The notes below the pieces were generated by a model. It was not told the origin of the DNA. It ran no database searches and saw only the letters and a list, made by a program, of their open reading frames with translations. From a virus (lineage: Duplodnaviria > Caudoviricetes), in IMG/VR virus record IMGVR_UViG_3300032954_000013, positions 1 to 60,827 of that record: a stretch of 60,827 nt of DNA, one strand, 5' to 3'. A program made the translations under genes and the position numbers. The stretch's first letter is position 1; each line of letters starts with the position of its first letter. This document shows, piece by piece, positions 22,813 to 48,530 of the stretch.

Positions 22813-22953
22813 TGTGGGCCTTCCCGGGGAGTCGCATTTTCTGGCCGGTCCATCGGTATCCTGCAGAACGCCGACCCTGCGCCAGTGATGTATCCCCGGG
22901 CGTCGCTAAAAGCAAGCGACAGGCTGGCCGACAGCCTGCGGAGAAAGTATAAC

Positions 22954-28017: not shown

Positions 28018-28393
28018 TGCCTGCGTTACAGGCCGCCATTCTCGCATGTTCGAAGATCACATAGCCGAGATAGGCTCGTCCCGTCCACCGAACAAAGGAA
28101 TGGCGATTCCTCTCTGTATAGTAGAAAAGCGCCGACTGGCCCGCAAAAAATCCCAGATTGATTCCAGCCTGCCTTGCCGGCGACGGATACTTTCCGAAAA
28201 TCGGATTGTTCTCCCAGCCGCCGCGATTGAGCAGTTGCCGCGTCGTGATCGCATCTGCTGCCGTTGATGCCGCCAGCAGCGAAACGCCGATCCGAAAAGA
28301 CTTCGAAGGCGCACGCTTGACGGGTTCTACCTGTGCAAGCACGGAACCCGAAAACAGCAGGATGAATACTGCGGCCATGATGATTCGTTTCAT
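27980..28393 (-). CDS. Exported/membrane protein (moron)
   Basis: Signal peptide MKRIIMAAVFILLFSGSVLA-Q; ADAITT..GWENNP resembles DUF5658-like membrane proteins. Confidence 0.7.
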   Translation of the reverse strand: MKRIIMAAVFILLFSGSVLAQVEPVKRAPSKSFRIGVSLLAASTAADAITTRQLLNRGGWENNPIFGKYPSPARQAGINLGFFAGQSALFYYTERNRHSFVRWTGRAYLGYVIFEHARMAACNAGIKVQSARAQNCF

Positions 28394-28533
28394 GACTTCG
28401 TTCCTTTTTTCGGCCTTCCTCCAAGCTTTCCGTTGCGCGCCGCCGCTTCAGCCTTCGCCTTGGACTTCGTTTCTCCGAGGCAGGCCGGGCAGCGAAGCGT
28501 GACGTGTGGATGCTTGGGGCATTTCACATCCAT
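28390..28533 (-). CDS. Small Zn-binding basic putative DNA-binding protein
   Basis: CPKH..CPAC and ARNGKLGGRPKK; GTG at 28527 is a possible leaderless start. Confidence 0.65.
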   Translation of the reverse strand: MDVKCPKHPHVTLRCPACLGETKSKAKAEAAARNGKLGGRPKKGTKS

Positions 28534-28562
28534 AGAATAGCCAACAGTTAGGTTTTTGTCCA
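28534..28562 (-). promoter_or_regulatory. Sigma70-like promoter TGGACA-N17-TATTCT
   Basis: Read directly; spacer holds the near-palindrome CCTAACTGTTGG. Confidence 0.6.
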
Positions 28563-28570
28563 GCCTGAAA

Positions 28571-28586
28571 AGATATAGAAACGCTT
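28571..28586 (+). promoter_or_regulatory. Conserved late motif AGATATAGAAACGCTT (copy 5)
   Basis: Followed by GAGG and ATG at 28598. Confidence 0.8.
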
Positions 28587-28597
28587 CTGAGGCCCGC

Positions 28598-31500
28598 ATG
28601 AGAAGAACCCTGCTTGGTTTGGCGGCGCTCGTTCTCCTGCTCGCCGCCCCGATCGCACTGGCGCAAGGCCCTTCGCTTACAACGGTTTCGGCCACCCTCT
28701 ACGCGTCAAACGGCCAGCCGCCAAGCGGAACAATCACAATTTCAACGCCGATACCATTCATTTCCGCAGATGGCTACCCGATCCCCGCGCATACGAACGT
28801 GACGGTGCCGGTCACGAACGGCGCCTTCAGCGTCAAGTTGGTTCCGACTGTGGCAGGGACTCCAGGCGGAGCATACTACATCGCCGGCTACAACCTTCCG
28901 AACGGGAGCTATACCGAATACTGGGTGGTTCCCGCGTCTGCGGTTCCGGTCGGACTCGCGCAGATCCGCGCGCCAGCCCCTCCAGTTCCGAGCATTTCAG
29001 TTCCATTCGCGCAACTCATACCGCCGCTTAATTGCGTGAATCAAACTCCGGAATGGACATCATCTGGCTGGGTCTGCATCACTTCGGGAAGCATCTTTCA
29101 GAGCTTTCAGCTTGGCTCGAATGCTCCGATCAGCGGCGCCGGGAATTATCTCCAGATCACAGGAAGTTCCCCGATTGTCATCGGGACGATGACGGGCCTT
29201 GGCACGATGGCATCCCCTTACGTCGTGCCAATCACTTGCCCGAGTTGCGGGGCGGGCGGCATGGTCTATCCGTCTGCCGGAATCGCCAATTCCACGGGTT
29301 CTGCGTGGGGCACATCCTACCAAGTCGGCACATCGGCGAATGACCTCGTGCAACTCAATTCCAGTGCCCAGCTGCCTCCCGTCAGTGCCGCGCTCCTCAC
29401 GAACTTCCCGACGCTGCCCTATTACGCGAATGTCCAGGCGAACGGTGGGGCGTTGCAGCAGGCAGCTACGCTCAATATCATCGCCGGCCCGAATATGACT
29501 GTCGCTTGCCCCACGTCGGGTGGCGTGACGAATTGCACGCTCAGTTCCACTTCCACCGCTTCGACAGCTTGGAGCGCATTGACGCCGGCAACGAACAGCG
29601 CTGCGGGAACTTTCCTTTCGACCGGCAATGCCTGGGATTTCTCGGCAGCCACTTCATTCAGCGTCCCGACTGTGGGTCTCACATTCCCCGGCTCGACGAG
29701 CGGCAGCGTGATTGTGGCCGCCCCAGCGGTCGCCGGCTCGCAGACGATTGCGTGGCCCGCAGGCTCCGGCACGGTCGCGGTCGGAGCTTCTCCACCGCTC
29801 GCCGAAAGTGCGGCTGGAGTAATTTCATGCCCCGGATGCGCGACGACGACTAACGGCGGTCCGCTTTCGGCCAGTTCGCCGATCACGATCAGCGCCGCCG
29901 GACTCATCGCCTGCGCCAGTTGCAATGTCTCAAATGCCACGGTATCAAGCGTGGGCCTCGCGACGAACGCCGGATGGTTCACGGTCACGAATTCCCCAGT
30001 GACCACGACGGGGAATCTCACTTTCAATCTCACAACCGGCCTCACCGGGAATGAAGTTCTCGCGACTCCCAATGGCTCAAGCGGCGTCATCGCACTCCGC
30101 GCGCTGGTCGGCGCCGATATTCCTGCGATCAATCTGGCCGCGAGTGGCAACGGCGGCGTGACCGGAAACCTCCCTTATTCCCAACTCTCCGGCGCACCGA
30201 CGCTCTACTATCAAACGATTCAGGCGAACGGATCAGCGCAGACGCAAGAGTTGACTGTCAATTATGCGGCCGGATCGAACATGACGATTACGCCGTCACT
30301 CGTGGGCGGCGTAACGACTCTCACCTTCACGGCGAGCACTACAGCTTCGACGGCATGGAGTGCAATCACTCCCGCCACAAATTCGAACGCAGGCACATTC
30401 ACGGCGAGCGGTAACTCATGGGTGTTCTCGGGCGCGAGCGCTTTCACGCTGCCAACTGTGGGCGCGATCTTCCCTGGCTCGACGAGCGGAAACATCACGC
30501 TTATCGCCACAGCCATCGCAGGCACGAACACGATTACCTTGCCAGCCGGGACCGGAACGGTCGCCATCTCCGCATCATCACCGATCACTTTGAGCGCAAC
30601 CGGACAGATCGCCTGCGCGACGTGCAACACGTCCAATGCGACGGTTTCAAGCGTCTCGATTGGCAACCTCTCGCCCCTATTCACCGCGAGTGTGGCGAAT
30701 TCAACCACCACTCCCACGATCTCGTTCACGCTGTCGAATGCGGCGCAAAATTCCGTTTTTGCCGGTCCCGCATCGGGCGGGGCTGGCGCTCCGAGCTTTC
30801 AGACGGCGCCAACATTCAGCGCCGCGAACCTGACGAACTTTCCGGTATTCGGATATTCGAATGGCGGCACCGGGGCGACGAGCTACACGACGAATTGCCT
30901 GCTTGAGGCAGGCGCATCGGCGTTCGCCTGCTCGCATCTCTCCGATAACGGCACGCTGATTTCGGCGACCGAGGGGCTTTCCATCGCTCCGACATCGACT
31001 TCACAGGTCGGCCTCATCGTCAACAATCCATCAAGCACGACCGCCGACATCGCCGATTTCGAAGTGAACGGCTCCATCGTCGCCAAAATCGACAAGAACG
31101 GCAATATCTACGCGGCAGTCGGAAGCAGTGTCGCTGGCCAAACCGTTCTCGCGTTCGGGACTGCGGCGAGTGCGCCATCGAGTGCCATCGGGATCACGGT
31201 TCCTACCAGCGGCACGGCGTATCAGATCGTGCTCCCCGGCGCGCAGCCGAGCGGAAGCAATACCTTCCTGTCTTGCACGTCGGCGAATCCGGCAGTCTGC
31301 AGTTGGGCTGCGGGAGGCGGAGTCACCAGTGTTTCCAACAGCGACGGCACGCTCACGATCTCGCCGACCACCGGAGCAGTCGTGGCTTCGCTCGCGCTCG
31401 GACACGCGAATACCTGGACCGCCGCGCAAACATTCCCCAACATCGTCTTCACAGGAAGCGCTTCCTACGCTCCGACTGCGGCGGGAGTTTTAGGCTACGA

Positions 31501-32395
31501 CACGACCAACAACCGTTATGTCGGAGGCAACGGCACAAACACTTCCTTTCTGACGTGGATCACCGCCGCGCCGACGACGGGCCACCTGGCGACATGGAGC
31601 GGCACGCTCGGACAATTGACGGACGGCGGAGCCGTTCCGACAGGTATGACCTATCCAAGCGGCAGCGGCTTTGCCATCGTCTCGGGCGGTGCAAGCTGGG
31701 GAACAACCCTGGCGATTCCGCTGCCCGTCGCTGATGGCGGCACGGGCACGGCGAGTCCGGGACTTGTGGCCGGTAGCGGCATTAGCATCACGGGAACCTG
31801 GCCGAATCAGACGGTCACGAACACGGGCGGCGGCGGAGGGGGCGGTCAGACCGATCACCCGATCACCACGACAACGGTGCCTCGTGTTTATGGCTTGTCC
31901 ACAACCGCAGCGGTGACGGTTGCCAACACGGTAAGCGCCACGACGATCATCGGCGCGTCGTTCCAGGGCAGCAATGCGATTCCAGCCGGAGCCATGCTGC
32001 CCAACGGACCGGGCACGAAGACGATGAGATACCACGCCTCGGGAGTCATGGGCACGGCGAGCTCGCCACCGACGCTTACCGTGACAGTGCTTCTTGGCGG
32101 CCAAACGCTTTCTTCGATTTCCGTTCCCGTCGTCGGCAGCCTTTCAAGCGATCCATGGGAAATGGACTATTATTTCACGGTCACGGGAATCGGTTCGGCA
32201 CAAGCTGGGGGCTGCGTTCGATTCATCGGCGCCGCCGGCGCTTTTCTGGCCGGGTGTGCGTCAAATGCCAGCATAACCGGTTTGAATTTTGGCGCGAACC
32301 AGACCTTTGACGTGCAAGTGACCTGGGGCACGGCGAGCTCGTCGAATACGATCACTTCCAACCAATCCGTACTCAGTCAGGAGCAGAGTCTATGA
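28598..32395 (+). CDS. Large signal-peptide-bearing fibre-like protein
   Basis: MRRTLLGLAALVLLLAAPIALA-Q leader; Gly/Ser/Thr-rich; CxxC repeats; internal duplication; NGGTG/DGGTG fibre motifs. Confidence 0.8.
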   Translation: MRRTLLGLAALVLLLAAPIALAQGPSLTTVSATLYASNGQPPSGTITISTPIPFISADGYPIPAHTNVTVPVTNGAFSVKLVPTVAGTPGGAYYIAGYNLPNGSYTEYWVVPASAVPVGLAQIRAPAPPVPSISVPFAQLIPPLNCVNQTPEWTSSGWVCITSGSIFQSFQLGSNAPISGAGNYLQITGSSPIVIGTMTGLGTMASPYVVPITCPSCGAGGMVYPSAGIANSTGSAWGTSYQVGTSANDLVQLNSSAQLPPVSAALLTNFPTLPYYANVQANGGALQQAATLNIIAGPNMTVACPTSGGVTNCTLSSTSTASTAWSALTPATNSAAGTFLSTGNAWDFSAATSFSVPTVGLTFPGSTSGSVIVAAPAVAGSQTIAWPAGSGTVAVGASPPLAESAAGVISCPGCATTTNGGPLSASSPITISAAGLIACASCNVSNATVSSVGLATNAGWFTVTNSPVTTTGNLTFNLTTGLTGNEVLATPNGSSGVIALRALVGADIPAINLAASGNGGVTGNLPYSQLSGAPTLYYQTIQANGSAQTQELTVNYAAGSNMTITPSLVGGVTTLTFTASTTASTAWSAITPATNSNAGTFTASGNSWVFSGASAFTLPTVGAIFPGSTSGNITLIATAIAGTNTITLPAGTGTVAISASSPITLSATGQIACATCNTSNATVSSVSIGNLSPLFTASVANSTTTPTISFTLSNAAQNSVFAGPASGGAGAPSFQTAPTFSAANLTNFPVFGYSNGGTGATSYTTNCLLEAGASAFACSHLSDNGTLISATEGLSIAPTSTSQVGLIVNNPSSTTADIADFEVNGSIVAKIDKNGNIYAAVGSSVAGQTVLAFGTAASAPSSAIGITVPTSGTAYQIVLPGAQPSGSNTFLSCTSANPAVCSWAAGGGVTSVSNSDGTLTISPTTGAVVASLALGHANTWTAAQTFPNIVFTGSASYAPTAAGVLGYDTTNNRYVGGNGTNTSFLTWITAAPTTGHLATWSGTLGQLTDGGAVPTGMTYPSGSGFAIVSGGASWGTTLAIPLPVADGGTGTASPGLVAGSGISITGTWPNQTVTNTGGGGGGGQTDHPITTTTVPRVYGLSTTAAVTVANTVSATTIIGASFQGSNAIPAGAMLPNGPGTKTMRYHASGVMGTASSPPTLTVTVLLGGQTLSSISVPVVGSLSSDPWEMDYYFTVTGIGSAQAGGCVRFIGAAGAFLAGCASNASITGLNFGANQTFDVQVTWGTASSSNTITSNQSVLSQEQSL

Positions 32396-33306
32396 GCAAG
32401 CTAAAGTTTTTGCTGCCGATGATTCTCGTCGCGTGCCTCGCATCTGCGGCCCATGGGCAGGGGCAGACGCTTTGCCCGACGAATACGTGGCCGTATCCGA
32501 ACGATCCGGTCACGGGAACCACGCAGTACACGCTCACGAAGATTAATTCGAGCGGCAATGCGGTCATCATGGCGACGACCGACACCGCCGGTTTTGCCGG
32601 TATCGCAATCTATGGAGCCGGGCAATCCGGCAGTGTGTGCCTGGCGAGAATCGGACTCTGGCCGCTCAAGATGTCAAACACCGCGACCGCGCAGCACTAC
32701 GTCCAGATTTCTTCCGGGACCGGGGGCGATGGTGCTGATACGGGAGCGACGACTTATCCGACCAGCGGCGGAGACGTGATTGGGCGCGTTCAGGCCTACG
32801 TGAGCGGCGCAGGGCTTGCGATAGTCGATCTTGGGCCGGAAGTGCAGGCCGTTGGACTTCCCAACGTAACAAACGATGCACAGACCAAAGCGGCCATCGT
32901 TCCCAATACGACTCCCTCGGCCGGGCAGCTTCTTGTCGGCAATGCGGGCGGAACGGCCTACGCGCCAGTCACGATGAGCGGCGATTGCACGATCACAAGC
33001 GCGGGAGCCATGGCCTGCGTTCCCCACGTTGCCGATACCACGATCACGATCGGCACCACGGCCATCAGCGGGAACAGCAAGACGACGGTCGCCACGGTGA
33101 CGATGACCGGCGCAACTACCTCGATGGTGGTTTCGATCTCTCCTTCGGCTGATTACAGCGGCACGACTGGATGGGGGACGACCGGAGGCTTGGTCATCAT
33201 GGCCTGGGTGAGCTCGGCGAACACGGTTAGCTACTACGTCATCAATCAGACGGCGTCAAGCATCACGCCGGGAGCCTCAACGACGTGGAATGTGAGCGTG
33301 CGATGA
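32392..33306 (+). CDS. Signal-peptide-bearing fibre-like protein
   Basis: MSKLKFLLPMILVACLASAAHG-Q leader; Thr/Gly-rich; MSGDCTITSAG motif. Confidence 0.75.
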   Translation: MSKLKFLLPMILVACLASAAHGQGQTLCPTNTWPYPNDPVTGTTQYTLTKINSSGNAVIMATTDTAGFAGIAIYGAGQSGSVCLARIGLWPLKMSNTATAQHYVQISSGTGGDGADTGATTYPTSGGDVIGRVQAYVSGAGLAIVDLGPEVQAVGLPNVTNDAQTKAAIVPNTTPSAGQLLVGNAGGTAYAPVTMSGDCTITSAGAMACVPHVADTTITIGTTAISGNSKTTVATVTMTGATTSMVVSISPSADYSGTTGWGTTGGLVIMAWVSSANTVSYYVINQTASSITPGASTTWNVSVR

Positions 33307-34058
33307 TCCGCAGAATTCTCACTATCGCATTCGCGTTGTCTCTCGTTCCATTTCTTGCTTTCGGACAGAATACCGTCCCGCAAGCAACTGGGGCAATCGC
33401 AGGGAGCGGCGGCGGCACCAATCCCGCATACGTCCAAGGGTCTACCGGCTTTACGGCCAGCGCCACGAATGTCTCGGCTACTCTGTCTGCGGTTGGTGCC
33501 GGTCATGGCCTGTTCGTCTACTGCATGGCACCGTCAAGCGCCTGCGCGGCTCCCACGGCGACAGGGGAGAGCTTCTCGACCTACACGGGAACATCGGGTT
33601 GCCAGGATTTCGGAGGCTACAACGTCCAGTGCTGGCTGGCGACTTCCACGGTTGGAGGGGAGACATCACTTACCTGCAACACGGGCGGCGGCACATCTGC
33701 GATTTTTTGCATCGTGATCGAATTCACAAGGCCGCAGGCGCTCGCCACTCCCAAGGACGCGGGCGGGCACAACAACACCGCCGGATCGACGAATTCCTGG
33801 TCCGTCTCTACCTCCGCTGCCACTACGAACGCCAACGATTTTGTAATTGGATGCTTCGGCTCGGTCAATATCGGCAACAACACCATTACAGTTGGAAGCC
33901 CATTTACCCAGCCCGCCGCCGCTTCGATCTCCAACTCCAGCGGGGAGGCCGCTTGCGGTTATCTCGTGGCGTCTTCCACAGGCACGCAGACCGCGACGGG
34001 TTCAGCGACATCGAACATGACCAATACCAACGGCGTAATTCTGGCGGTAAAGCCGTGA
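33303..34058 (+). CDS. Signal-peptide-bearing Cys-containing beta-rich protein
   Basis: MIRRILTIAFALSLVPFLAFG-Q leader; several Cys; two similar halves. Confidence 0.75.
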   Translation: MIRRILTIAFALSLVPFLAFGQNTVPQATGAIAGSGGGTNPAYVQGSTGFTASATNVSATLSAVGAGHGLFVYCMAPSSACAAPTATGESFSTYTGTSGCQDFGGYNVQCWLATSTVGGETSLTCNTGGGTSAIFCIVIEFTRPQALATPKDAGGHNNTAGSTNSWSVSTSAATTNANDFVIGCFGSVNIGNNTITVGSPFTQPAAASISNSSGEAACGYLVASSTGTQTATGSATSNMTNTNGVILAVKP

Positions 34059-36115
34059 CGCCTTACCAGCCAGCGATGTCGAACCAGTCGGCTTTCTGCC
34101 TGCGAAGCGCAGCGAAGAAATTCCTGATGCGATCGGCCATCTTTTTCATTGCGGCCCTCTTTTATGCTGGTCCGAGTATAGCACAGGCCCCGATCTGGCC
34201 CGGACAATCCGGCAACTATGTGGGCTTCGCGGCGGCTCCGGGCTGGCCCGGTTCATTTACCGCCACGGCCTGCCCATCCTCGCCCGCGAGCGGCACTAGC
34301 TGGGCCAACGCGACAATCGTCACGAATTGCACCTACAGCACGTCGAGCCACATATCGGTCAGTTGCCACTACTGCGAATTCCTGTACGTGGACTTCAAGA
34401 CTTCGGCGACCAATGACGATACGGTTCTGGTCAGCGGGCAGAACATACTTTTCATGGGAGACCGCTTCCAGTCGAACTGCGTCGAGTGCGGAGACGTGTC
34501 CGTGACCAGCTCGGCGAGCGCGGTTTACTTCTTCTACGACAGCACCACGCCGCTAGTTTCCTACTACATTTCGCCTCCGGGCACGGGATGCAGCGAGGTT
34601 ACGCCGGGGAACATCGGCTGCACGGGCTGGCCCGCCGCCGGAATTAACACTTTCAACCCGATAGAAGAAACCGGATTCACTCCGGGCGCGATTACTCCAT
34701 CGAACGCGACGGCGGTGAACGGCAACAAGGGGTATGAGTTCGGCTTCAACCTCAACAGCAGCACGGGCACGGTATGGATCGACTCGTGCGACATCTGGGG
34801 ATTCGGGGACGCCATCGTCAGTCAGACCTCGACCGCCCAGCAAACGATTACCAACACGTGGATTCACGACGCCGCTTATCCTTCCGAGCAAAGCTACCAC
34901 GTGGACGGCTACGGGTACTCAAACGGCGCTGTGGGGCCAAACAATGTGACGCTGATCGGCACGGTTACGGCAATTTATGGCGGCGGTGGAACCGATGGGC
35001 TGGCCCTGCAAGCGGCGACGGGCGGCTACCAGAACATCTACGTGGCCGAGAATTTCTTCAGCGGCGATGGAGCGACGATTGCATGGTGCCATCCTGGTTC
35101 CGTTCAATGCACCAACTCCTATTTCTACGGGAATACTTTCGGGACAGACATGCAGCCGGGAGGACCGGTTTACGGGTTCACCACCACGCTCGGCTCCGGA
35201 AGCCAGTGGATATGCAATCGAATCTCGTTCCGCTCGGGAACCTCATGGACGGACCAGAACGATAACTGGACGCCCACTTCCGGGATGAACGGGCAATATT
35301 TCCTCTGGGCGCAAGGCACCGCTCCTAACTACGCCTACAACAATTCAACCGACACCGGAGGGAATACGGTCTGCGGCGTCCCTGCGCCATCCACGATCAA
35401 TTTCGGTACGCAGGCGAGCGGCACCAGCTCATCCGCCCAGACGGTCACGCTCTACGCCAACAATACGGCGAATCTCACGGGCGTTTCCGTGGCGCTGGCA
35501 GGCGGAACGCAGTTCTCCATCGTATCGAACGGCTGCGGATCGACGGTGACGGCTGGAACCAACTGCGCGATCACGGTCAAGTTTTCGCCGACCGGACTGG
35601 GGCCGCAGACCGATACGCTCAAAATCACGGACAACACACCGGGAGTGACTTCGCCGCAACTCGTGCCTTTGGCGGGAACAGGCATCAATAGCACGGCCGT
35701 GGTGCTTTCGCCTTCGAGTGAGAATTTCGGCTCGATCAATGTAGGCAGCTCTAGCAGTCCCGCCACTTTCACCCTTACGAATAACAATTCCACGACGGCG
35801 ACGAGTATTTCGCCTTCGGTCCCATCGGGCGCCGACCCTTCGGACTTCTCGATCACGAATTCCGGCGCTGGTTCCTGTTCGGCTGCGGGCGGGTCACTTG
35901 CACAAGGAGTCAGTTGCACTTTCACCGTCACATTTACGCCCGGCGCAACCGGATCGCGTTCGGCGACTTTGAGCGTCTCCTATAGCGGCGGAGACGGTGC
36001 AAGTCCGCAGACGGCGGCACTATCAGGTACTGGAACATCAAGCGGAGTTTCTAATCCAGTTGTGCTCAGCGGATCCGTAACGCAGAATGGCAATAGTTCG
36101 ATTCAGGCGAAATAA
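34055..36115 (+). CDS. Exported beta-helix-like protein with two C-terminal ASH/choice-of-anchor-D Ig-like domains
   Basis: Leader MRSAIFFIAALFYAGPSIA-Q (ATG 34127); NFG..SSAQTVTL..C...C.ITVKFSPT..G and a second copy; IWGFGD, WIHD, HVDG beta-helix-like turns. Confidence 0.75.
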   Translation: MTPYQPAMSNQSAFCLRSAAKKFLMRSAIFFIAALFYAGPSIAQAPIWPGQSGNYVGFAAAPGWPGSFTATACPSSPASGTSWANATIVTNCTYSTSSHISVSCHYCEFLYVDFKTSATNDDTVLVSGQNILFMGDRFQSNCVECGDVSVTSSASAVYFFYDSTTPLVSYYISPPGTGCSEVTPGNIGCTGWPAAGINTFNPIEETGFTPGAITPSNATAVNGNKGYEFGFNLNSSTGTVWIDSCDIWGFGDAIVSQTSTAQQTITNTWIHDAAYPSEQSYHVDGYGYSNGAVGPNNVTLIGTVTAIYGGGGTDGLALQAATGGYQNIYVAENFFSGDGATIAWCHPGSVQCTNSYFYGNTFGTDMQPGGPVYGFTTTLGSGSQWICNRISFRSGTSWTDQNDNWTPTSGMNGQYFLWAQGTAPNYAYNNSTDTGGNTVCGVPAPSTINFGTQASGTSSSAQTVTLYANNTANLTGVSVALAGGTQFSIVSNGCGSTVTAGTNCAITVKFSPTGLGPQTDTLKITDNTPGVTSPQLVPLAGTGINSTAVVLSPSSENFGSINVGSSSSPATFTLTNNNSTTATSISPSVPSGADPSDFSITNSGAGSCSAAGGSLAQGVSCTFTVTFTPGATGSRSATLSVSYSGGDGASPQTAALSGTGTSSGVSNPVVLSGSVTQNGNSSIQAK

Positions 36116-36125
36116 GGAGAGAAGC

Positions 36126-36545
36126 ATGAAATCGAAAAGCATCTTGGCGCTGGTCATCGTTGCATTGATTGCTGCGTTTGCTTTCGGTTGGCATGAGTTT
36201 GGCTCGCATTCGTCCTCGGTTTCGGCCTCGGCGCCAAACGCCAAGGATTGCATGCCGAGCTCGCCGACCGATATGAGTTGCCCGTCGCAGGACTATCTCG
36301 ACCTGCAGGCGCGCGCAGCGAAGGCTCAGGCCGAGATTAACGACTTGATGCAATCGGATGAAGTGAAGAAGTTGAACGCGGAAATTCAGGAGAAGCAGAT
36401 CACCTGGAAGGGAATCGAAGTGACGCTGAATCAGATGACGCCGCGCGATCCGATGGGGCGCGCCTACGGCTACGACGACAAGACGCACCGATTCACTCCG
36501 CCTCCGAATCCAGCGCCGCAGTCTCCGCCGCCGGCCAAGAAATGA
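36126..36545 (+). CDS. N-anchored coiled-coil protein (possible i-spanin-like)
   Basis: N-terminal TM/signal, heptad segment, Pro-rich tail; AGGAG RBS. Confidence 0.55.
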   Translation: MKSKSILALVIVALIAAFAFGWHEFGSHSSSVSASAPNAKDCMPSSPTDMSCPSQDYLDLQARAAKAQAEINDLMQSDEVKKLNAEIQEKQITWKGIEVTLNQMTPRDPMGRAYGYDDKTHRFTPPPNPAPQSPPPAKK

Positions 36546-36700
36546 ACGATGAAGGCGAGCCCGTCGCGGTGCATTTCGATCGTTATTGCCCGCACTGCGG
36601 ACGCACGACGAAGCACGCGATGGTTGACGGCGAACCGAAGTGCGAAGAGTGTTCCAAGCGGGATAATTTGCTCGAGTTTCCGAGGAGGCCCAGCCAATGA
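36542..36700 (+). CDS. Small Zn-ribbon protein
   Basis: Manual translation contains CPHC and CEEC; ATGA-coupled on both sides. Confidence 0.55.
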   Translation: MNDEGEPVAVHFDRYCPHCGRTTKHAMVDGEPKCEECSKRDNLLEFPRRPSQ

Positions 36701-37143
36701 TGGTCATGGTGCAGCAGGTTGATGTCGCTCACGTTCACCCGCATGTGATTTGGTTTTTCTACTGGACTGGATGGTTCATGCACATCCTCTGCGTGGCCTA
36801 CCTGACGGCCAAGAGCGCGGTGAACCCGGCGAAGGACATCTGGGACTATCTCGTCCAGAAATGGCCCCCCATCTTGATTCGCATGTTCCTCGTCACGCTC
36901 GGATTCCTGTTCTGGAAGTTCAATCCGACCGTTGTGAATGATTTCGGCAAGCACTGGGCATCCAGCCTTTCGCCGGGAACTTTTCACGATCTGATCCTGA
37001 GCGTCGGGATTCCGCTCAACGCCTTCACTGCGGGCCTCTACGGTTACGTGGGCGACTCGCTATTCGACAAGCTGCTCGGCTTCACGCCCTGGTTCAAAAG
37101 CGTCGTGCCGCCGCTCGCGCAGAATGCCGTGCAAAATCCATGA
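36697..37143 (+). CDS. Putative holin-like membrane protein
   Basis: About three hydrophobic segments; GLYGYVGDSLFDK; GGAGG RBS. Confidence 0.55.
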   Translation: MMVMVQQVDVAHVHPHVIWFFYWTGWFMHILCVAYLTAKSAVNPAKDIWDYLVQKWPPILIRMFLVTLGFLFWKFNPTVVNDFGKHWASSLSPGTFHDLILSVGIPLNAFTAGLYGYVGDSLFDKLLGFTPWFKSVVPPLAQNAVQNP

Positions 37144-37424
37144 GCGAGGGCGACAGAGCAATCCCGGTAGCCGCGAGTCCAGACGACAGGGTAAATCCGA
37201 TCTGGAAGTATGTGGCTATGACCGTCGTCGGTATGCTGCTCGGCGGCGCTCCGTCCTACATCTCTCTCTCGATCGACCATCACTACGCGATGACCAAGAC
37301 GGACGTTGACGGCGAGGTGGACAGCCACACGCAGGCCATCGTGCAGAGCGTAAGCGACCTGAAAGAGCAAGTGAAGGAACTCGCCGGAGAAGTCCACGAG
37401 CTTTCGAGGGCGCGCGACAAATGA
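37140..37424 (+). CDS. Membrane protein with C-terminal coiled coil
   Basis: One TM then heptads, typical of lysis-region genes. Confidence 0.6.
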   Translation: MSEGDRAIPVAASPDDRVNPIWKYVAMTVVGMLLGGAPSYISLSIDHHYAMTKTDVDGEVDSHTQAIVQSVSDLKEQVKELAGEVHELSRARDK

Positions 37425-37427
37425 CGG

Positions 37428-37602
37428 TAGCTCCATCGGGGCGCATGCGTAGTAGCCGCTGTGAATCCGGTCCGTAAACTCTACGCATGCGCCCCCAAGG
37501 AGGCTATTGCTTTTGAGGATAATCCATGCCACATTGTCAACCGTTCACTCCGATTGCCCCAACCGGGACGGCGGGTTAGGCCCCCTGAACGCCTGCCGTC
37601 CC
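37428..37602 (+). other. Two long intergenic hairpins
   Basis: Perfect 15-bp IR 37438-37452/37481-37495; 12-bp stem 37565-37576/37591-37602. Confidence 0.7.
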
Positions 37603-37621
37603 AAGAGATAAGGAGACGAAA

Positions 37622-38224
37622 GTGAAACACTGGATTCGCCTCATCTTGTTCGCCCGCAAGTATCACATGCTGTTCCTCGCCGCCGGATTGCTAATGCTCA
37701 CCGTCAGCCTGTGCGCCTGCAACATTCCCGCATGGATTTCAACTGGCGAAGCCGTCATTGGCCTAGCCGAAACGATGATTGGAGCAATCCTGACTGCGAT
37801 GGGTGCTGTCGGCGCGGCAGCGACGATGGTCTCAATCGTAAACAAGATTCTCGCGGCTATGCAGGATGCTCTCGCGATGTACGAGGAATACAAAAACAAT
37901 CCGTCCACGACACTGCTAAGCTCCATTAAAGAAGGTTTCCAGGCCGTCCTCGATGGTGCCACGCAGTTTATGACGGACACGGGCGTTACGAACGTGAACC
38001 TTCAGAACAAGCTGAAGTCGATCATGCAGCTCGTCATCAACGAAATCACGGCCCTGCAATCGACGCTCCCGGCGCTCGTCGCTAAGGCTGGCGAGCAGTT
38101 CACCGTGACGGTGCCGATGGACAAGAAGCAGTTTGTGGCCGCGTACAATCAGATCATCGGAACACCGACTGGCGATGCGGAATGCGACGGCATTCTGGCG
38201 CAACTCAAGGCTCTCAAGGCGTAG
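37622..38224 (+). CDS. Putative lipoprotein
   Basis: Hydrophobic leader ending SLCA-C; AAGGAG RBS; amphipathic helical body. Confidence 0.65.
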   Translation: MKHWIRLILFARKYHMLFLAAGLLMLTVSLCACNIPAWISTGEAVIGLAETMIGAILTAMGAVGAAATMVSIVNKILAAMQDALAMYEEYKNNPSTTLLSSIKEGFQAVLDGATQFMTDTGVTNVNLQNKLKSIMQLVINEITALQSTLPALVAKAGEQFTVTVPMDKKQFVAAYNQIIGTPTGDAECDGILAQLKALKA

Positions 38225-38252
38225 CGGTCGCAAAGCTGAAACGGCTCTAAAT

Positions 38253-38447
38253 TTTTGCGCGGCGGATGCGTAGGACGCATCACCTAAGTGTGAGCACCAA
38301 GCCGAGGGAATCCCGGCTGGCAAAATCCCGGCGGATACGCGGCCAACGTCGGAGACATAGTGGCCTCCGAGCTGCTAGGGAGTCTCAGGGATGGGCTGCG
38401 GCTCACTGCTGAAGGCCCACGGCCGAGTAAGGCAATGCCGCGCAAAA
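38253..38447 (+). ncRNA. Candidate multi-helix structured RNA, family not recognised
   Basis: 11-bp closing stem TTTTGCGCGGC/GCCGCGCAAAA enclosing at least five hairpins; no ORF. Confidence 0.6.
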
Positions 38448-38469
38448 TCTTTTAGTGGAGAAATAGCCA

Positions 38470-39339
38470 ATGGAACTTCCGCTTTCTCCCGCTGGGCGTC
38501 GGTATGGTGGCAAGCCTTCCCGCATTGACCATCGTGATTACGGCCCTCCGCTGCATATCCTCACGATGCGCGGCCCACTCGCTTCGCGCATTCTGCTCCC
38601 AGACCCTCCAAGCGGTACATCGACGCTCGGTGCGGTAAAAGACCAAGGCCAACAGGGAAGCTGCGATGGTCACGCCTCGAGCGAATGCGGGGAGCGGCTC
38701 TGGCGATTCGTCAAAGGCGAAGCGCTGATCTTCTCGCCAGCGTTCGCCTACTACCAGATTCGCAAATTCGAAGGCACGCTCGACCAGGGCGACTGCGGCG
38801 GCCAGATCGTCTCTGGCATGATCATTGCGGACGGAAATCCCGGTGCTGGGGGCATTGGCTACTGCCCGAATGAGCTGATGCCCTATAACCAAAATGATTG
38901 CTCAACTCCGCCATCGGCAGATGCGCTCGCTGCGGCCGCAAAATATCCGGGCGGCTCGTACCACAACATCGGGAACAATATCGGGCTCATCAAATCCTGC
39001 ATCGCTTCTGGCTACAGCTTCGAAATCGGCATCGCAGTCTACGATTCCTTTGAATCGGATACGGTCGCTGGCAATGGCCTCGTACCGATTCCGGCTCCGA
39101 GCGAGAACCTTCTGGGCTATCATGCGCTCCATTGCGGGATGATCGCTGATGACACGATCAAGTGCCCGGGAGTACCAAATCCCGGCGCCGTGATGTTCCA
39201 GAATAGCTGGGGCTCGAATTGGGGCTGCGAATGCCCGCTGACATCAGAGCGCGGCTACGGCTGGCTCGCCTATGATTTTCTCAATAGCACCGACCTCACG
39301 ATCGATGTCCGCATGAGTCATCTTGGGGGACCTTGGTAG
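38470..39339 (+). CDS. Papain-like cysteine peptidase (C1 family)
   Basis: DQGQQGSC, GYHA, QNSWGSNWG with Cys/His/Asn triad. Confidence 0.92.
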   Translation: MELPLSPAGRRYGGKPSRIDHRDYGPPLHILTMRGPLASRILLPDPPSGTSTLGAVKDQGQQGSCDGHASSECGERLWRFVKGEALIFSPAFAYYQIRKFEGTLDQGDCGGQIVSGMIIADGNPGAGGIGYCPNELMPYNQNDCSTPPSADALAAAAKYPGGSYHNIGNNIGLIKSCIASGYSFEIGIAVYDSFESDTVAGNGLVPIPAPSENLLGYHALHCGMIADDTIKCPGVPNPGAVMFQNSWGSNWGCECPLTSERGYGWLAYDFLNSTDLTIDVRMSHLGGPW

Positions 39340-39341
39340 CA

Positions 39342-39752
39342 ATGGACCTCAAGACTCTAGTCGCGATGTACAGCAACCCTGCACCCAAAGTGAAGCTCCT
39401 CTGCCTCGGGATCTCGAAGGCCGAGGGCTTCGATGTTCCCGGCTCGCTGCCAGCACGTTGCCACAATCCGGGGGATCTCGAAATTGGCAATGTTGGCTAC
39501 GGCGTAGACAATGGCAAGACGATCTTCCCTGACGATGCGACGGGCTGGGCCGCACTCTACCGCGAAGGCTCGCTGATGCTTGCGGCGATGACGAGTTTGC
39601 ACCGATCACACGTTTACTCGCTCGGAGAGACGTTCCTTCAGGTCGCTCAAGCATGGACAGGGGGCGATAATCCAAGCGGCTGGGCTCAGACGGTCGCGGA
39701 GACTTGCGGGATGTCAGTTACGAACACGCTACAGGAATTCCTCGACGCCTAG
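39342..39752 (+). CDS. Putative lysozyme-fold endolysin
   Basis: EG..RCHNPGDL..FPD..TGWAAL resembles the RNNNPGNI phage muralytic family; last late gene. Confidence 0.55.
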   Translation: MDLKTLVAMYSNPAPKVKLLCLGISKAEGFDVPGSLPARCHNPGDLEIGNVGYGVDNGKTIFPDDATGWAALYREGSLMLAAMTSLHRSHVYSLGETFLQVAQAWTGGDNPSGWAQTVAETCGMSVTNTLQEFLDA

Positions 39753-39755
39753 CGC

Positions 39756-40652
39756 TCACGGCGTCTCCTGCGAGGGAGCGGAGAGGGCGGCTTCTACCGG
39801 ACACGTTGGATTATGATGATTGCGCGTGCTCCCCAAGCAGTACGGGCACTTGTCGAACGTCATGCTACGAATCAATCGCTCAAGTTCCGCGATTCGCGCC
39901 TCGGGGGATGGGCCGGGATGGGCGGCTCGCACGAGTTCGCGCAGGCACGGCAGGCAGTCCATCGCCAGGCCCGACGCCGTCTCAGGATGCGGGCACTTCG
40001 TGCGTCCTTCCCACCAGTTCAGAATCGCGTCGCCCTGCCCCGTAGCTTGCTCGCCGAGGCGAGGCTCGGGGGCGCGCTCAGATTGCAATCGCAGGTATTC
40101 GTCGCTCAAGTACTTTATCGTTCGGGCAAAGAAACTGCGATCTTCAGGGGCTTGCTGCGCCGCATCTTGGCAGGCGTCCACTATTTCTCTCGGCCAGTGT
40201 TGTGGAAAATCTCCGCGCGTAGGCTCGGGGGCGGGAGCGGCCACGAACTGACGGACCTGTTCGATACTGTCGGTGACCAGATGCGCCATCTTGACCATCA
40301 AATCCGGTTCGCGCACGCCGGGGATATAGACAACGACTCGCTTTCCGGCGCCGACAGCCCAACCCATTTCCATCGAAGCGGAGGGGCCGCACGGCATCAC
40401 GTAGACGCACACTTCGCAGCCGCGCAAGGCGTCCATGTCCCGCTCAAAACCACGCTCGGCGCATGGATGATTCAATCCAGCGAGGTATTTTGGAATGTCG
40501 CTCGGCCAGTTCTGCCACTCGGGATCGACTTCGCTCCAATGGAATCCCTCGGAGTCCTTGAAGTCATATACGTCATGCCCGTCAGCGCGGAGAACTTTCA
40601 CCACCTCTGGCTGGAAAGTGTTGCGCCACGAACTCGCTACGTAAACTTTCAT
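39756..40652 (-). CDS. Nucleoside 2-deoxyribosyltransferase-like domain with C-terminal extension
   Basis: KVYVASSWRN, D..AL..C, CGPSASMEMGWA. Confidence 0.7.
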   Translation of the reverse strand: MKVYVASSWRNTFQPEVVKVLRADGHDVYDFKDSEGFHWSEVDPEWQNWPSDIPKYLAGLNHPCAERGFERDMDALRGCEVCVYVMPCGPSASMEMGWAVGAGKRVVVYIPGVREPDLMVKMAHLVTDSIEQVRQFVAAPAPEPTRGDFPQHWPREIVDACQDAAQQAPEDRSFFARTIKYLSDEYLRLQSERAPEPRLGEQATGQGDAILNWWEGRTKCPHPETASGLAMDCLPCLRELVRAAHPGPSPEARIAELERLIRSMTFDKCPYCLGSTRNHHNPTCPVEAALSAPSQETP

Positions 40653-43058: not shown

Positions 43059-43276
43059 TCTCTTGACCTCGCGAAGAATCCTGCTCGGCTCTTGTCCATG
43101 TGGCTCAGAACATCGTCAACAGTTCGCATGGCGTGAGGGTAGAGGCAGAGAGTGCTGCGAGTTTCGGGATCGTGGAACAACACCAGCGGCCCGTTGCGTG
43201 ATTCCTGGATGCCGCAGAATCGGGCACCGGCCTTCTCAATCAATTGCTGGCAGCGAATGAGTTCGTCGGGAGTCAT
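43055..43276 (-). CDS. Hypothetical protein
   Basis: GGAGG RBS; ATGA-coupled. Confidence 0.6.
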   Translation of the reverse strand: MTPDELIRCQQLIEKAGARFCGIQESRNGPLVLFHDPETRSTLCLYPHAMRTVDDVLSHMDKSRAGFFARSRE

Positions 43277-43833
43277 TGGCTTTCCTCCACAGGAATCTTG
43301 AGATTTTCCCGAACAATACTCGCCATGTTCCTTAGAGCGCCAGCCCTAGTGGCGGCGGCGGCGGCGGCGGCGGCGTAGGCGGCGTCGGCGGCGTCGGCGG
43401 CGTCGTAGGCGGCGGCGGCGTAGGCGGCGGCGTAGGCGGCGTAGGCGGCGTCGGCGGCGGCGGCGACGGCGGCGGCGTAGGCGGCGTAGGCGGCGTCGGC
43501 GGCGGCGGCGACGGCGGCTCGGGCTTGCGCTTTCGTTCCTGTCCCATTTGCCCATGCTCGTGCTGCTTCGATGACCTTGCGTGGACGATCATTCTTGGGA
43601 TATTTTTTTTCGAATATCGGAAGAGCGGTTTCAGCACACAAACAAACAACGAGAACGATTTGTTGATGGGTCGGCCAGCCGTCTTTGCCAATCATTCGCC
43701 CGCACAGCCACAACATCCAATCGGCGCGCTCACACTCGGCCCACGCGGTTGCAAGATCGCGCTCGCCGACCCAGTTAACCGCATCGTTGCAGGCACCCAA
43801 TCTGTTCAGCAGCTTACCGAGTTCAGTTTTCAT
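43273..43833 (-). CDS. Imm5-like phage protein with Ala-rich repeat
   Basis: LGAC..AVNW, RADWMLW, CAE..LPIFE...P.NDRPRK.IEAA followed by AAYAA/AADAA repeats. Confidence 0.65.
   Translation of the reverse strand: MKTELGKLLNRLGACNDAVNWVGERDLATAWAECERADWMLWLCGRMIGKDGWPTHQQIVLVVCLCAETALPIFEKKYPKNDRPRKVIEAARAWANGTGTKAQARAAVAAAADAAYAAYAAAVAAAADAAYAAYAAAYAAAAYDAADAADAAYAAAAAAAATRAGALRNMASIVRENLKIPVEESQ
43351..43518. repeat. Low-complexity (GGC)n/GGCGTA/GGCGTC coding repeat
   Basis: Encodes poly-Ala punctuated by Tyr/Asp on the - strand. Confidence 0.9.
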
Positions 43834-44078
43834 CGCCCGTATCTCCCTTCCCGGCTTTCCACGTCGAAGTCGAAGTCCACGTTTTCTTCGCACAGTTCCC
43901 GCTGCGTCTGGGCGTTTCTCTCCGCGCAGCATTTTTCGCACATGGCTGTCGTGCCTTCGACCATCGGCCGACGGTGGGGCTCGACGCAGACACCGCACCT
44001 GTCGCAGTAATAGGGGATGCCGAGCCAGTCGCAGAGACGATGAAGAGCAGTCGAGATGAAGCGGAGAACTTGAATCAT
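43830..44078 (-). CDS. Cys-rich hypothetical protein
   Basis: AAGGAG RBS; CDRC, CEKC. Confidence 0.55.
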   Translation of the reverse strand: MIQVLRFISTALHRLCDWLGIPYYCDRCGVCVEPHRRPMVEGTTAMCEKCCAERNAQTQRELCEENVDFDFDVESREGRYGR

Positions 44079-47785: not shown

Positions 47786-47938
47786 ATGAAGCGTTATTGC
47801 CGCTGTGGCCGCCGCGCCCGAGCGGTCACGCGCAAGCGCAGAGGCAATCGGCGCGGGAAGTACATGCAGCGTAAATCGCACGATCTTTGTCCCAGATGTT
47901 TCCGGGCAATCGTGAACGCGAATTCGGAGAAGGAGTGA
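47786..47938 (+). CDS. Small Arg-rich Zn-finger protein
   Basis: Manual translation MKRYCRCG..HDLCPRC. Confidence 0.5.
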   Translation: MKRYCRCGRRARAVTRKRRGNRRGKYMQRKSHDLCPRCFRAIVNANSEKE

Positions 47939-47942
47939 CGAA

Positions 47943-48091
47943 TTTTGGAGCCGACCTAATCCATTGCGGGCCAACCGCTGACTTGGAAAGCCGCACAACG
48001 GCGAGCAGTGGGAGTACAGCAGCCAAGGTGCCAAGAGGCGCTCTACAGCGGGTTCGGGTGCTACGGACGCGGTAGCGGGTCGGCTTCAAAA
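47943..48091 (+). ncRNA. Candidate multi-helix structured RNA, family not recognised
   Basis: 14-bp closing stem TTTTGGAGCCGACC/GGTCGGCTTCAAAA with nested helices. Confidence 0.55.
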
Positions 48092-48107
48092 GTTTAGAGG
48101 CGAAGGA

Positions 48108-48530
48108 GTGACGATGACTGATCTCGCCAAAGCATTTGAGCCGAAAGAAGGCTGGTGGACTGAGACGATAGCCGGGCGTCCGTGGTTCACCGATGGCCAG
48201 GTGATGTTTGAAGGTGAGCAGCAAACCTCGCGACCGCCTTTGTCCAAAGGATCAATGGCGAAAGTCTATAAAAAGATCACCGCCGCACGGCTGACGCGAC
48301 TAGGGCGAGTGAGGCACGGATTAACTGGTTACTCGACGTGCGAGATAGCGACTTCCACCTTTGCCAATGGTCCTCGCATCCAGCGCGTCTATTTCGACTA
48401 TGCCAAAAGCCTCGGTGCCGAATTCTTTGCGGGAGCGCAATGCGGAGAGAGCAAAAGGGACCGCTACGTCATTTGCAAGGCGAAAGGCAAGATCATCGGC
48501 ATAATCATGCCTGTACGATACACCGATTGA
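48108..48530 (+). CDS. Hypothetical protein
   Basis: AAGGAG RBS; WFTDG and IGIIMP motifs. Confidence 0.65.
   Translation: MTMTDLAKAFEPKEGWWTETIAGRPWFTDGQVMFEGEQQTSRPPLSKGSMAKVYKKITAARLTRLGRVRHGLTGYSTCEIATSTFANGPRIQRVYFDYAKSLGAEFFAGAQCGESKRDRYVICKAKGKIIGIIMPVRYTD

Follow-up and report, generated by a model that had tools for sequence, protein, structure and literature searches.

Within the window, by which we mean the whole 60,827-nt stretch of viral DNA under analysis, a single copy of a stem-closed element, E1, lies in the non-coding gap between two plus-strand genes of the late arm (Table 1). In agreement with the first-pass annotation, this gap (38225–38469, 245 nt) is the largest of the late arm, a ranking that holds for a rough gene map rather than a proper gene call and in which apparently larger gaps are filled by plus-strand open reading frames (ORFs). 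The element also ends just 5' of the ribosome-binding site (RBS) of the downstream peptidase gene, as had been claimed, with 10 nt separating it from GGAG (38458–38461) and the ATG following at 38470. The upstream 200-aa protein found only itself in a search of 5.8 billion proteins, and a 36% homologue occurs in the same position at one related locus, L029. The peptidase has 105 homologues, many of which carry PF00112 or are named 'C1A family cysteine protease', and its closest relatives (P0001–P0004) share 91–62% identity with it; its match to phrog_16701 'peptidase' is weak. IMG/VR was also scanned with the peptidase and the 200-aa protein as single queries, and no relatives were returned. 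The location of E1 in a lysis region, as the locus had previously been described, would follow from a putative role of the C1A peptidase in lysis, the class itself being read from the names of homologues.

Table 1. Coordinates of E1, its parts, its neighbours, and the comparison element E2 in the window.
Feature	Position	Strand	Description
Gap 5' of the 200-aa gene	37425–37621	+	z -3.78, 0/60 shuffles equal; strongest of 18 gaps
Upstream gene	37622–38224	+	200 aa; N-terminal part hydrophobic; no family (no Pfam or PHROGs match)
Weak terminator-like site	38234–38256	+	5-bp hairpin 38234–38246 plus T-run, just past the upstream stop codon
E1	38253–38447	+	195 nt; stem-closed multi-branch predicted RNA fold
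Closing helix, 5' arm TTTTGCGCGGC	38253–38263	+	perfect complement of 38437–38447; pair probability 0.97–0.98
Closing helix, 3' arm GCCGCGCAAAA	38437–38447	+	perfect complement of 38253–38263
E1 first hairpin	38265–38281	+	7-bp stem, 3-nt loop; pair probability 0.97
E1 central branched domain	38290–38406	+	GUGAGC/GCUCAC closure; helix probabilities 0.90–0.98
Parts of the central domain	38297–38320, 38325–38336, 38338–38400	+	two hairpins and a long arm
Peptidase SD/start hairpin	38454–38493	+	-12.7 kcal/mol; holds SD GGAGAA (38457–38462) and start codon 38470
Downstream gene	38470–39339	+	289-aa C1A papain-like cysteine peptidase
E2	47943–48091	+	stem-closed comparison element; TTTT...AAAA closure like E1; z -2.79

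ORFs of 31–53 aa are present in the E1 gap, but the gap does not qualify as a small protein gene. Relatives of its 53-aa minus-strand ORF were searched for and none were found, while a tblastx comparison of the gap with 90 related loci gave a best E of 0.16, i.e., no coding signal. Neither tblastx nor the search with the 53-aa ORF revealed any sign of a decayed gene.

The predicted minimum free energy (MFE) of E1 is -91 kcal/mol, with 69 predicted pairs, six of them G-U, and most helices have a pair probability above 0.9. The perfect 11-bp closing helix described in the first-pass annotation lies exactly where it had been placed, both 11-nt arms being fully complementary. The same fold is obtained in the 195-nt and in a roughly 400-nt context, with helix probabilities of 0.90–0.98, and in the longer context the closing helix is extended by five pairs (CUAAA/UUUAG) beyond an internal loop. 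The plus strand is favoured by 6–8 kcal/mol, the mirrored minus-strand structure being 8.1 kcal/mol weaker. The inner helices proposed earlier were borne out in part. GATGCGT/ACGCATC (probability 0.97), AGCCG/CGGCT (0.90), and the GCC-GAGTAA-GGC hairpin are all present in the plus-strand MFE structure, whereas ATCCC/GGGAT, TCGGAG/CTCCGA, and TGGGC/GCCCA are complementary but appear neither in the MFE structure nor in the centroid of that strand. Instead, the model pairs AUCC/GGAU and GAGAC/GUCUC together with UAGUGGC/GCUGCUA, and also favours a 6-bp GUGAGC/GCUCAC helix and a 7-bp CGCGGCC/GGCUGCG helix. The peptidase Shine-Dalgarno (SD) sequence and start codon are located outside E1, in a hairpin of their own in which the SD/anti-SD pairing has a probability of 0.83; this hairpin is not significant (z -1.70, equalled by 14/200 shuffles). 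A further CUCC sequence resembling an anti-SD is found in the 6-nt loop of the E1 hairpin 38358–38377.

Whether the fold exceeds chance depends on where E1 is taken to end. At 38253–38447, none of 200 shuffles equalled it (z -3.65; minus strand, z -3.32); for other boundaries z fell to between -1.50 and -2.05. Specifically, the interior (38264–38436) gave z -1.95 with 8/200 shuffles equal, the core (38288–38408) z -2.04 with 4/200, the entire gap (38225–38469) z -2.05 with 2/60, and E1 with its flanks (38225–38500) z -1.50 with 13/200. The fold thus clearly beats shuffles solely at ends that were set on the closing helix. That helix is itself a chance-level feature across the window, in which we counted four perfect inverted pairs (arms of at least 11 nt, spacer of 60–400 nt), whereas 40 dinucleotide shuffles averaged 6.4 and 35 of them contained four or more. 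When 1517 windows of 195 nt were ranked by GC-adjusted MFE, E1 came second, behind a coding window at 39041, and z was -3.4 or lower in two of 145 arbitrary windows. Among 18 intergenic gaps, the E1 gap was the second most structured (z -2.05) after the gap 37425–37621 (z -3.78), and the remaining 16 all had z above -1.3. The structure of E1 is therefore better than chance, but only moderately so. We also observed that the two most structured of the 18 gaps are those on either side of the 200-aa gene. The first of them contains a hairpin with 22-nt arms (37431–37452 / 37481–37502), which has an 8-mer in common with the first hairpin of E1; this coincidence was judged by our own estimate to be due to chance.

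No known RNA family accounts for E1. Rfam 15, whose families include riboswitches, ribozymes, 6S, RNase P, SRP, group I/II introns, and HEARO, at the gathering score gave no matches in the whole window, and at E<=10 it gave three weak matches in 37500–39200, none overlapping 38253–38447; ARAGORN found no tRNA or tmRNA genes in the window. These results uphold the earlier statement that E1 is not a tRNA, tmRNA, RNase P, or known riboswitch. In the parts of the literature covered by a full-text search, nothing was found on E1 or on the leaders of phage C1 peptidases. A Pfam survey of the 66 ORFs of the window revealed no reverse transcriptase, as a retron msr-msd would have, and no integrase or recombinase family, as would accompany an attP site. 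Likewise, there is no sigma-70-like promoter on either strand of 37400–39000 and no phage late motif near E1, the nearest copy being at 28571. The hairpin 38234–38246 is the sole terminator-like site in 37400–39000, and the T-run that follows it extends into the 5' closing arm of E1. Such sites are not enriched in 20001–40000, where 17 were found and 19.1 were expected. At the other end, AAAA separates the closing stem from a 4-U run, which is not the geometry of an intrinsic terminator.

Judged by sequence, E1 stands alone in all the collections that were searched. The gap DNA found no match among 50,697 phage records by blastn in a distant mode, and comparison with 90 loci of peptidase relatives gave a best E of 0.29 over 15 nt by blastn (word size 7) and nothing by nhmmer. 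The best BLAST matches in three related virus records spanned just 28 nt and 14 nt. A covariance model, R1, built from E1 as a single sequence with its 69 pairs, recovered only E1 itself from the window and 86 loci (467,726 bases; next E=2) and found nothing in five related virus records. In 401 Acidobacteriota genomes, the gap DNA matched pieces of 20–37 nt in nine at a per-genome threshold of E<=0.01, and these pieces are spread across the query; a peptidase profile likewise gave distant matches in nine of the 401 (best E 9e-41). The sequencing runs listed as containing the virus comprise two wetland DNA runs with small shares of it and no RNA run. Over 37000–40000 the two DNA runs gave a few short identical or nearly identical contigs and many unrelated pieces, and neither variants inside E1 nor joints were detected in them at a depth of approximately 1–4. 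The peptidase ORF could be placed in 22 loci of relatives. In ten of these (six distinct sequences), 100 nt or more of non-coding DNA of unrelated sequence precede it, while in seven it abuts or overlaps the upstream gene. A strong hairpin is present in four of the five relatives' gaps that were folded, and the three z values computed were -4.78 (L003), -2.65 (L029), and -1.60 (L042). L029 is the sole locus that also has a homologue of the 200-aa gene, and the gap upstream of that homologue is just 54 nt long, so the pattern of a gene bracketed by structured gaps is not common to both. A published catalogue of structured RNAs from IMG/VR comprises motifs of 29–151 nt with at least three unique regions and covariation (PMC10690425); going by the catalogue's own description, E1 resembles its entries as an intergenic phage structure from IMG/VR but differs from its motifs in being 195 nt long and in occurring in one record only.

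With its position, its predicted folding, the lack of a coding signal, and its absence from the relatives searched established, E1 is most likely an ordinary structured spacer of late messenger RNA. More specifically, we tentatively hypothesize that E1 is a lineage-specific intercistronic mRNA structure serving as punctuation, that is, as a decay barrier, a processing site, or an attenuator; we consider this possible rather than probable. E1 is presumably transcribed with its neighbours, and co-transcription is the simplest reading because both neighbours lie on the plus strand, no sigma-70-like promoter was found, and the nearest copy of the late motif is as far away as 28571. We infer every step of the mechanism that would follow. 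E1 would form a non-coding spacer of a late polycistronic mRNA, between the membrane-type 200-aa gene and the peptidase gene, and once transcribed it would adopt a compact stem-closed multi-hairpin domain that may block 3'-to-5' decay of the upstream segment. Alternatively, processing or a partial stop at E1 may let the two flanking gene products be made in independent amounts. By holding a long untranslated stretch in a folded state, the domain would also prevent the exposure of a Rho loading site.

Intercistronic stem-loops act as punctuation in the REP/BIME elements of malEFG, in the puf hairpins of Rhodobacter, and at the RNase III sites between T7 genes. Like these hairpins, E1 is non-coding, stable, and placed between co-oriented genes, it leaves the translation signals of the next gene free, and the position of its gap is conserved in some relatives while the sequence is not. 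Terminators and stabiliser hairpins keep their position and not their sequence, and ribozymes and riboswitches behave otherwise; the conserved gap position thus suggests a terminator- or stabiliser-like mode of evolution. Since the peptidase abuts or overlaps its upstream gene in seven of the 22 loci, its expression appears to need no such structure, which counts against punctuation. The differences are that REP, puf, and T7 elements are single hairpins or short pairs and E1 is predicted to be a 195-nt multi-branch domain, and that REP elements are multi-copy and E1 is unique. In favour of punctuation, the modelled fold is well defined, independent of context, and favoured on the plus strand, and the two top-ranking gaps flank the 200-aa gene; in addition, the peptidase SD and start codon are free of E1. 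Against it, the multi-branch domain exceeds what a decay barrier requires, coordinates chosen without bias give a modest thermodynamic signal, and a coding window scores equally by GC-adjusted MFE. Also to be counted against it are the apparent lack of a homologue, and hence of covariation, the lack of canonical terminator geometry, and the chance-level frequency of terminator-like sites in the late arm.

Nearly as likely as punctuation, though somewhat improbable taken by itself, is that E1 has no function and consists of GC-rich spacer DNA left behind, for instance by a decayed gene or an old insertion, with a stable fold that merely follows from its composition and from coordinates picked on a chance inverted repeat. 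The chance frequency of the closing helix, the weaker z values of the interior and of E1 with its flanks, the two arbitrary windows with z of -3.4 or lower, the coding window ahead of E1, and the absence of E1 from relatives and from everything else searched all agree with such a relic. However, E1 ranks second of 1517 windows and, together with the neighbouring gap, stands apart from 16 others, its pair probabilities are unusually high in comparison with random sequence, the searches showed no sign of a former gene, and a useless spacer of 245 nt would be odd in a tightly packed late arm. It is distinctly unlikely that E1 is instead a cis-acting sensor in the peptidase 5' leader, i.e., a new riboswitch, an RNA thermometer, or a protein-binding operator that times a cell-wall-degrading enzyme. 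Riboswitches and other Rfam cis-regulators do precede cell-wall hydrolase genes (ydaO/c-di-AMP, NLPC_P60, lysM) and, in the case of c-di-GMP-I, one clostridial phage lysis module. Like those leaders, E1 is structured and lies directly 5' of a peptidase that possibly acts on the cell wall; its size and multi-branch architecture would fit, and both the pairing within the SD/AUG hairpin and the CUCC loop are suggestive. Unlike them, it matches no Rfam family even at E<=10 and is not conserved across relatives, seven of whose 22 loci are leaderless while others have unrelated simple hairpins. Moreover, the SD hairpin does not differ significantly from shuffles, no terminator/antiterminator alternative or sequestering pairing that involves E1 was found, and about 0.47 Mb of related loci and the 401 Acidobacteriota genomes yielded no homologue, whereas riboswitch aptamers are normally conserved well past such depth. 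An independent small RNA gene with a separate start and stop, on one strand or the other, would suit a compact stem-closed domain of small-RNA size that folds well on both strands (z -3.65 and -3.32), but this is quite improbable, as neither strand has a promoter-like site, no late motif lies nearby, both ends are terminator-less, and homologues are lacking. In phage lambda, the late leader between PR' and tR' yields a 194-nt '6S' transcript before the S-R-Rz genes. E1 is similar in being about 195 nt long, structured, non-coding, and situated right before a presumed lysis enzyme gene; it is dissimilar in having no 5' promoter, 3' terminator, or late promoter-like motif, and in lying at the end of the late arm and not at its beginning.

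It is also possible, although unlikely, that E1 arrived as a foldback insertion, a MITE-like or recombination-borne cassette with short inverted ends, of the same kind as E2, and that its RNA fold is secondary. E1 and E2 are the sole stems in the window with TTTT[G/C]...AAAA closure (at least 9 bp, span 80–300 nt), for which dinucleotide shuffles gave a mean of 0.205 and two or more in 2/200, by a criterion chosen after both elements had been seen. Both stop a few bases 5' of the RBS of the next gene, TTTAGWGG has only two copies in the genome, each within 2–4 nt past E1 or E2, and the 3' flank of E2 is the best non-self match to that of E1 among 110 CAAAA sites. E2 is further flanked by an exact 13-nt direct repeat (47929–47941 / 48102–48114) that is unique in the genome, includes the RBS, and looks like a target duplication. 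Against an insertion, the longest direct repeat across the E1 flanks is 6 nt, R1 does not match E2 at E<=10, and the two interiors have no sequence or structure in common. The similarity of the 5' flanks is insignificant (85 of 110 control sites score equally) and part of the 3' likeness is attributable to SD-like purines, while no transposase, integrase, or recombinase is encoded among the 66 ORFs. The genes that flank E2 have no relatives in five virus records or in IMG/VR. Small intergenic elements with short inverted ends are otherwise familiar from MITEs and from the MPME elements of mycobacteriophages, which are ultra-small mobile elements of about 440 bp with 11-bp inverted ends and an ORF. 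E1 has such terminal repeats, at chance frequency, and E2 has the flanking direct repeat, but unlike those elements E1 is single-copy, with no target-site duplication, related copies, or transposase. No other copy was found in IMG/VR by end pattern. The end pattern does occur at 19 genome loci, five of them in one Acidobacteriota MAG in which the 11-mer is present 48 times against 12 for a control. A MITE family inferred through this MAG was rejected as a coincidence with an unrelated repeat family, because 29 of the 30 distinct ends examined run outward into a conserved palindromic unit that is absent from the window, and because the interiors of the 19 loci are unrelated to E1 (no more than 15.4 bits, contributed entirely by the forced ends). 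The TTTT...AAAA closure, the TTTAGWGG pair, and the 13-nt duplication at E2 leave a slim chance that E1 and E2 belong to an undescribed class of stem-closed structured cassettes, which would insert between phage genes just 5' of the RBS, each bringing along an AU-rich spacer and an SD-like end, and would work once transcribed as portable RNA modules for insulation or processing. Finally, E1 could be a DNA-level site, either an inverton before the peptidase gene or another recombination site. Invertible promoters are segments bounded by inverted repeats directly upstream of a gene, and the geometry fits, with a segment of about 195 bp and 11-bp inverted ends directly 5' of a gene. This is nonetheless very improbable: the 66 ORFs include no recombinase or invertase, E1 contains no promoter-like site, the repeat is at chance frequency, and the six G-U pairs and the strand preference in energy favour RNA over DNA. 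One contig across the right repeat (38369–38536, run X1) is in the reference orientation, at a coverage too low to exclude inversion.

The value of the present analysis is mainly negative, in that the closing helix occurs at chance frequency and the z value depends on the chosen ends; as an orphan, E1 cannot at present be promoted to a new RNA class. Its importance could rise if E1 and E2 were inserted cassettes of a common kind, for which there is a hint only, and the 13-nt repeat at E2 is a loose lead in that direction. If E1 is functional, it would represent one more case of RNA punctuation that sets the amounts of late or lysis proteins, useful though not surprising, and one that comes from the poorly known phages of soils and wetlands that have no cultured host.

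E1, the 195-nt element in the 245-nt gap 38225–38469 between two late-arm genes (see table), is predicted to fold into a stem-closed multi-branch structure. Its 11-nt arms (38253–38263 and 38437–38447) are perfectly complementary, as the first-pass annotation stated, and its minimum free energy (MFE; RNAfold) is −91.0 kcal/mol compared with −75.65 ± 4.2 in 200 dinucleotide shuffles (z −3.65). Partition-function pair probabilities reach 0.90–0.98 for the closing helix, the first hairpin, the 6-bp GUGAGC/GCUCAC helix, the AGCCG/CGGCU hairpin, a 4-bp mini-hairpin, the 7-bp CGCGGCC/GGCUGCG helix, and the stacked GAGAC/GUCUC and UAGUGGC/GCUGCUA helices, and the helices are unchanged when 38150–38550 is folded. 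The ATCCC/GGGAT, TCGGAG/CTCCGA, and TGGGC/GCCCA pairings proposed earlier are indeed complementary, but they are out-competed in the plus-strand fold. The MFE structure comprises 69 pairs, 6 of them G-U, and the plus strand is preferred over the minus strand (MFE −84.8; −82.9 for the mirrored structure).

Coordinates of the elements and neighboring features
Feature	Position	Strand	Description
Upstream gene	37622–38224	+	200 aa, no family match
E1	38253–38447	+	flagged element
Downstream gene	38470–39339	+	289 aa; 105 homologues, mostly named C1A or papain-like cysteine proteases
Hairpin in gap 37425–37621	arms 37431–37452 / 37481–37502		22-nt arms, 91% complementary
E2	47943–48091	+	second stem-closed element

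The excess of E1 over chance is moderate, and smaller than it first looks. Perfect inverted pairs 11 nt or longer, separated by 60–400 nt, occur 4 times in the window versus 6.4 ± 2.7 times in shuffled genomes, 35 of 40 of which contain at least 4; two of the other pairs in the window lie inside genes. Much of the z-score derives from the closing helix, since the interior alone drops to −1.95 (8 of 200 shuffles as good); the core domain alone gives −2.04. For boundaries set without visual selection, the z-score is −2.05 for the whole gap (2 of 60 shuffles as good) and −1.50 for 38225–38500. The fold clearly outperforms dinucleotide shuffles only at the ends originally proposed; at other boundaries the score is about −2 to −1.5. 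In a 195-nt sliding scan up to 14.4 kb (25 shuffles each), 2 of 145 windows had z-scores of −3.4 or below, and by GC-adjusted MFE E1 ranked second of 1517 windows (−3.29 sd), behind a window inside the peptidase gene (−3.41 sd). In favor of E1, clearly structured gaps number 2 of 18, its own among them, and both flank the 200-aa gene; the remaining 16 score above −1.3. The most structured is 37425–37621 (z −3.78; 0 of 60 shuffles as good), where the hairpin is followed by a short U-rich stretch and may serve as a terminator or as a site of the RNase III type.

The earlier view that E1 is not recognizable as a tRNA, tmRNA, RNase P RNA, or known riboswitch holds in searches with Rfam 15 and ARAGORN. 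Rfam 15 returned no gathering-level match across the window and, at E ≤ 10 within 37500–39200, three weak matches, all outside E1; ARAGORN found no gene in the window. E1 is probably also absent from the IMG/VR structured-RNA catalogue (PMC10690425), because the motifs listed there span 29–151 nt and each occurs in at least 3 regions.

Relatives of the locus were sought through the peptidase, whose closest relatives share 91, 75, 62, and 62% identity. DNA resembling the E1 gap was absent from the 90 loci gathered (10 IMG/VR loci plus the 80 best of 241 metagenomic ones). R1, a covariance model derived solely from the E1 sequence and its MFE structure, matched only E1 itself in the window and 86 loci, leaving E2 unmatched, and had no match in 5 related virus records. 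The peptidase ORF could be placed in 22 of 26 loci examined, the 22 including several duplicate records; it abuts or overlaps the upstream gene in 7 and lies behind a gap of 100 nt or more in 10 (6 distinct sequences), the gap sequences being unrelated. A strong hairpin was present in 4 of the 5 such gaps folded, and the z-scores of three relatives' gaps were −4.78 (locus L003), −2.65 (L029), and −1.60 (L042). The 200-aa gene has a clear homologue in L029 alone (36% identity over 204 residues), where a 107-nt gap follows it. Two wetland DNA runs contained only a few identical phage fragments, and E1 showed no variation in these; the runs listed for this phage included none of RNA.

The phage genome (the window, a whole IMG/VR virus record; 60,827 bp, 57.5% GC) carries a 127-bp direct terminal repeat, and a Pfam scan of its 66 ORFs identified portal, terminase, RcGTA-like tail, DNA methylase, SNF2-type helicase, and GIY-YIG/NUMOD3 endonuclease families. 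The last is a 211-aa homing-endonuclease-like gene (10475–11110, minus strand) lying between two late-arm genes, a portal/MuF-type gene and a protease gene, on the strand opposite to theirs. The late arm ends at 39752–39756, where a 139-aa plus-strand gene converges with a minus-strand nucleoside deoxyribosyltransferase-like gene (phrog_12607, E 1e-50); their stop codons are 3 nt apart, so there is no space for an intergenic terminator. A GGC-rich tandem array (43327–43545; 9-nt period, 16 overlapping copies) lies within the minus-strand ORF 43273–43998, the C-terminal part of which matches an Imm5-like immunity family. The 16-nt motif first annotated as a late promoter has 5 plus-strand copies (7694, 11135, 12199, 17840, and 28571) versus 0.16 in shuffles, none of them near E1. 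An exact 15-nt repeat, possibly due to chance, is shared by the E1 5' flank (38235–38249) and a site within the protease ORF (12094–12108), about 100 nt upstream of the 12199 copy.

E1 and E2 are the only stretches of 80–300 nt in the window closed by TTTT[G/C]...AAAA stems of at least 9 bp; shuffles averaged 0.205, with two or more in 2 of 200, under a criterion set post hoc. TTTAGWGG has just two genome copies, one following E1 and the other E2, each within 2–4 nt, and among 110 CAAAA sites the 3' flank of E2 is the one most like that of E1, self-match aside, a similarity partly reflecting purines that resemble a ribosome-binding site (SD). The 5' flanks show no significant likeness. An exact 13-nt direct repeat, found nowhere else in the genome, brackets E2 (47929–47941 and 48102–48114); it includes the SD of the next gene, and its first copy forms the end of an ORF of about 49 codons with a CxxC...CxxC pattern (47786–47935, by hand translation). 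From its sequence, E2 resembles an insertion flanked by a target duplication; no relatives of its neighboring genes were found in 5 virus records or in IMG/VR. That E1 and E2 are both inserted structured cassettes of a novel class is very unlikely.

A search for both 11-nt arms separated by 160–190 nt yielded no match in IMG/VR; across 185,579 species genomes it gave 19 loci, of which five belong to a single 6.3-Mb Acidobacteriota MAG. There the 11-mer occurs 48 times versus 12 for a control, a four-fold enrichment, embedded in a longer palindromic repeat unit, which extends outward in 29 of 30 distinct ends examined. R1 scored at most 15.4 bits on these loci, all from the pattern-forced ends. 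Kinship with E1 was rejected as coincidence, given the unlike interiors and the longer palindromic unit around the 11-mer. The MAG repeat family itself (about 185–235 nt, long palindromic ends; loci L092, L094, L096, L101, L110, and L113–L142) is unrelated to E1 except for an 11–12-mer.

We tentatively favor E1 as a transcribed, untranslated spacer structure that would act as punctuation in late mRNA. The co-oriented flanking genes, the lack of a promoter-like site or late motif nearby, the lack of coding signal found in the gap, the plus-strand preference of the fold, and a downstream SD and AUG free of E1 all point this way, as do the relatives' gaps at the same position, hairpin-bearing yet unrelated. 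Intercistronic structures such as REP elements, those of the puf operon, and T7 RNase III sites serve exonuclease protection, processing, partial termination, and Rho avoidance. Likewise, E1 may shield the upstream mRNA segment from 3' exonucleases, offer a processing site, cause partial termination, or prevent Rho loading along an extended untranslated region. E1 does not have canonical terminator geometry, and against punctuation, its predicted multi-branch shape would be more elaborate than the job requires.

Two close rivals to punctuation are that E1 has no function, which we consider rather unlikely, and that it is a foldback insertion, which is more doubtful still. The longest direct repeat flanking E1 is 6 nt, and the Pfam scan found no integrase, recombinase, transposase, or reverse transcriptase. 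Other readings of E1 are less likely than these. A riboswitch-like leader of the peptidase gene is quite improbable; the peptidase SD (GGAGAA) pairs with UUCUCC of its own codons 5–7 (probability 0.83) in a weak, statistically insignificant hairpin at 38454–38493 (−12.7 kcal/mol, z −1.70). It is very doubtful that E1 is a stand-alone sRNA, and a DNA inversion switch is hardly credible. On present evidence, with moderate statistical and no evolutionary support, E1 is an orphan case of a common kind of feature; nothing like it is in Rfam, and an uncatalogued element is not thereby new in kind.
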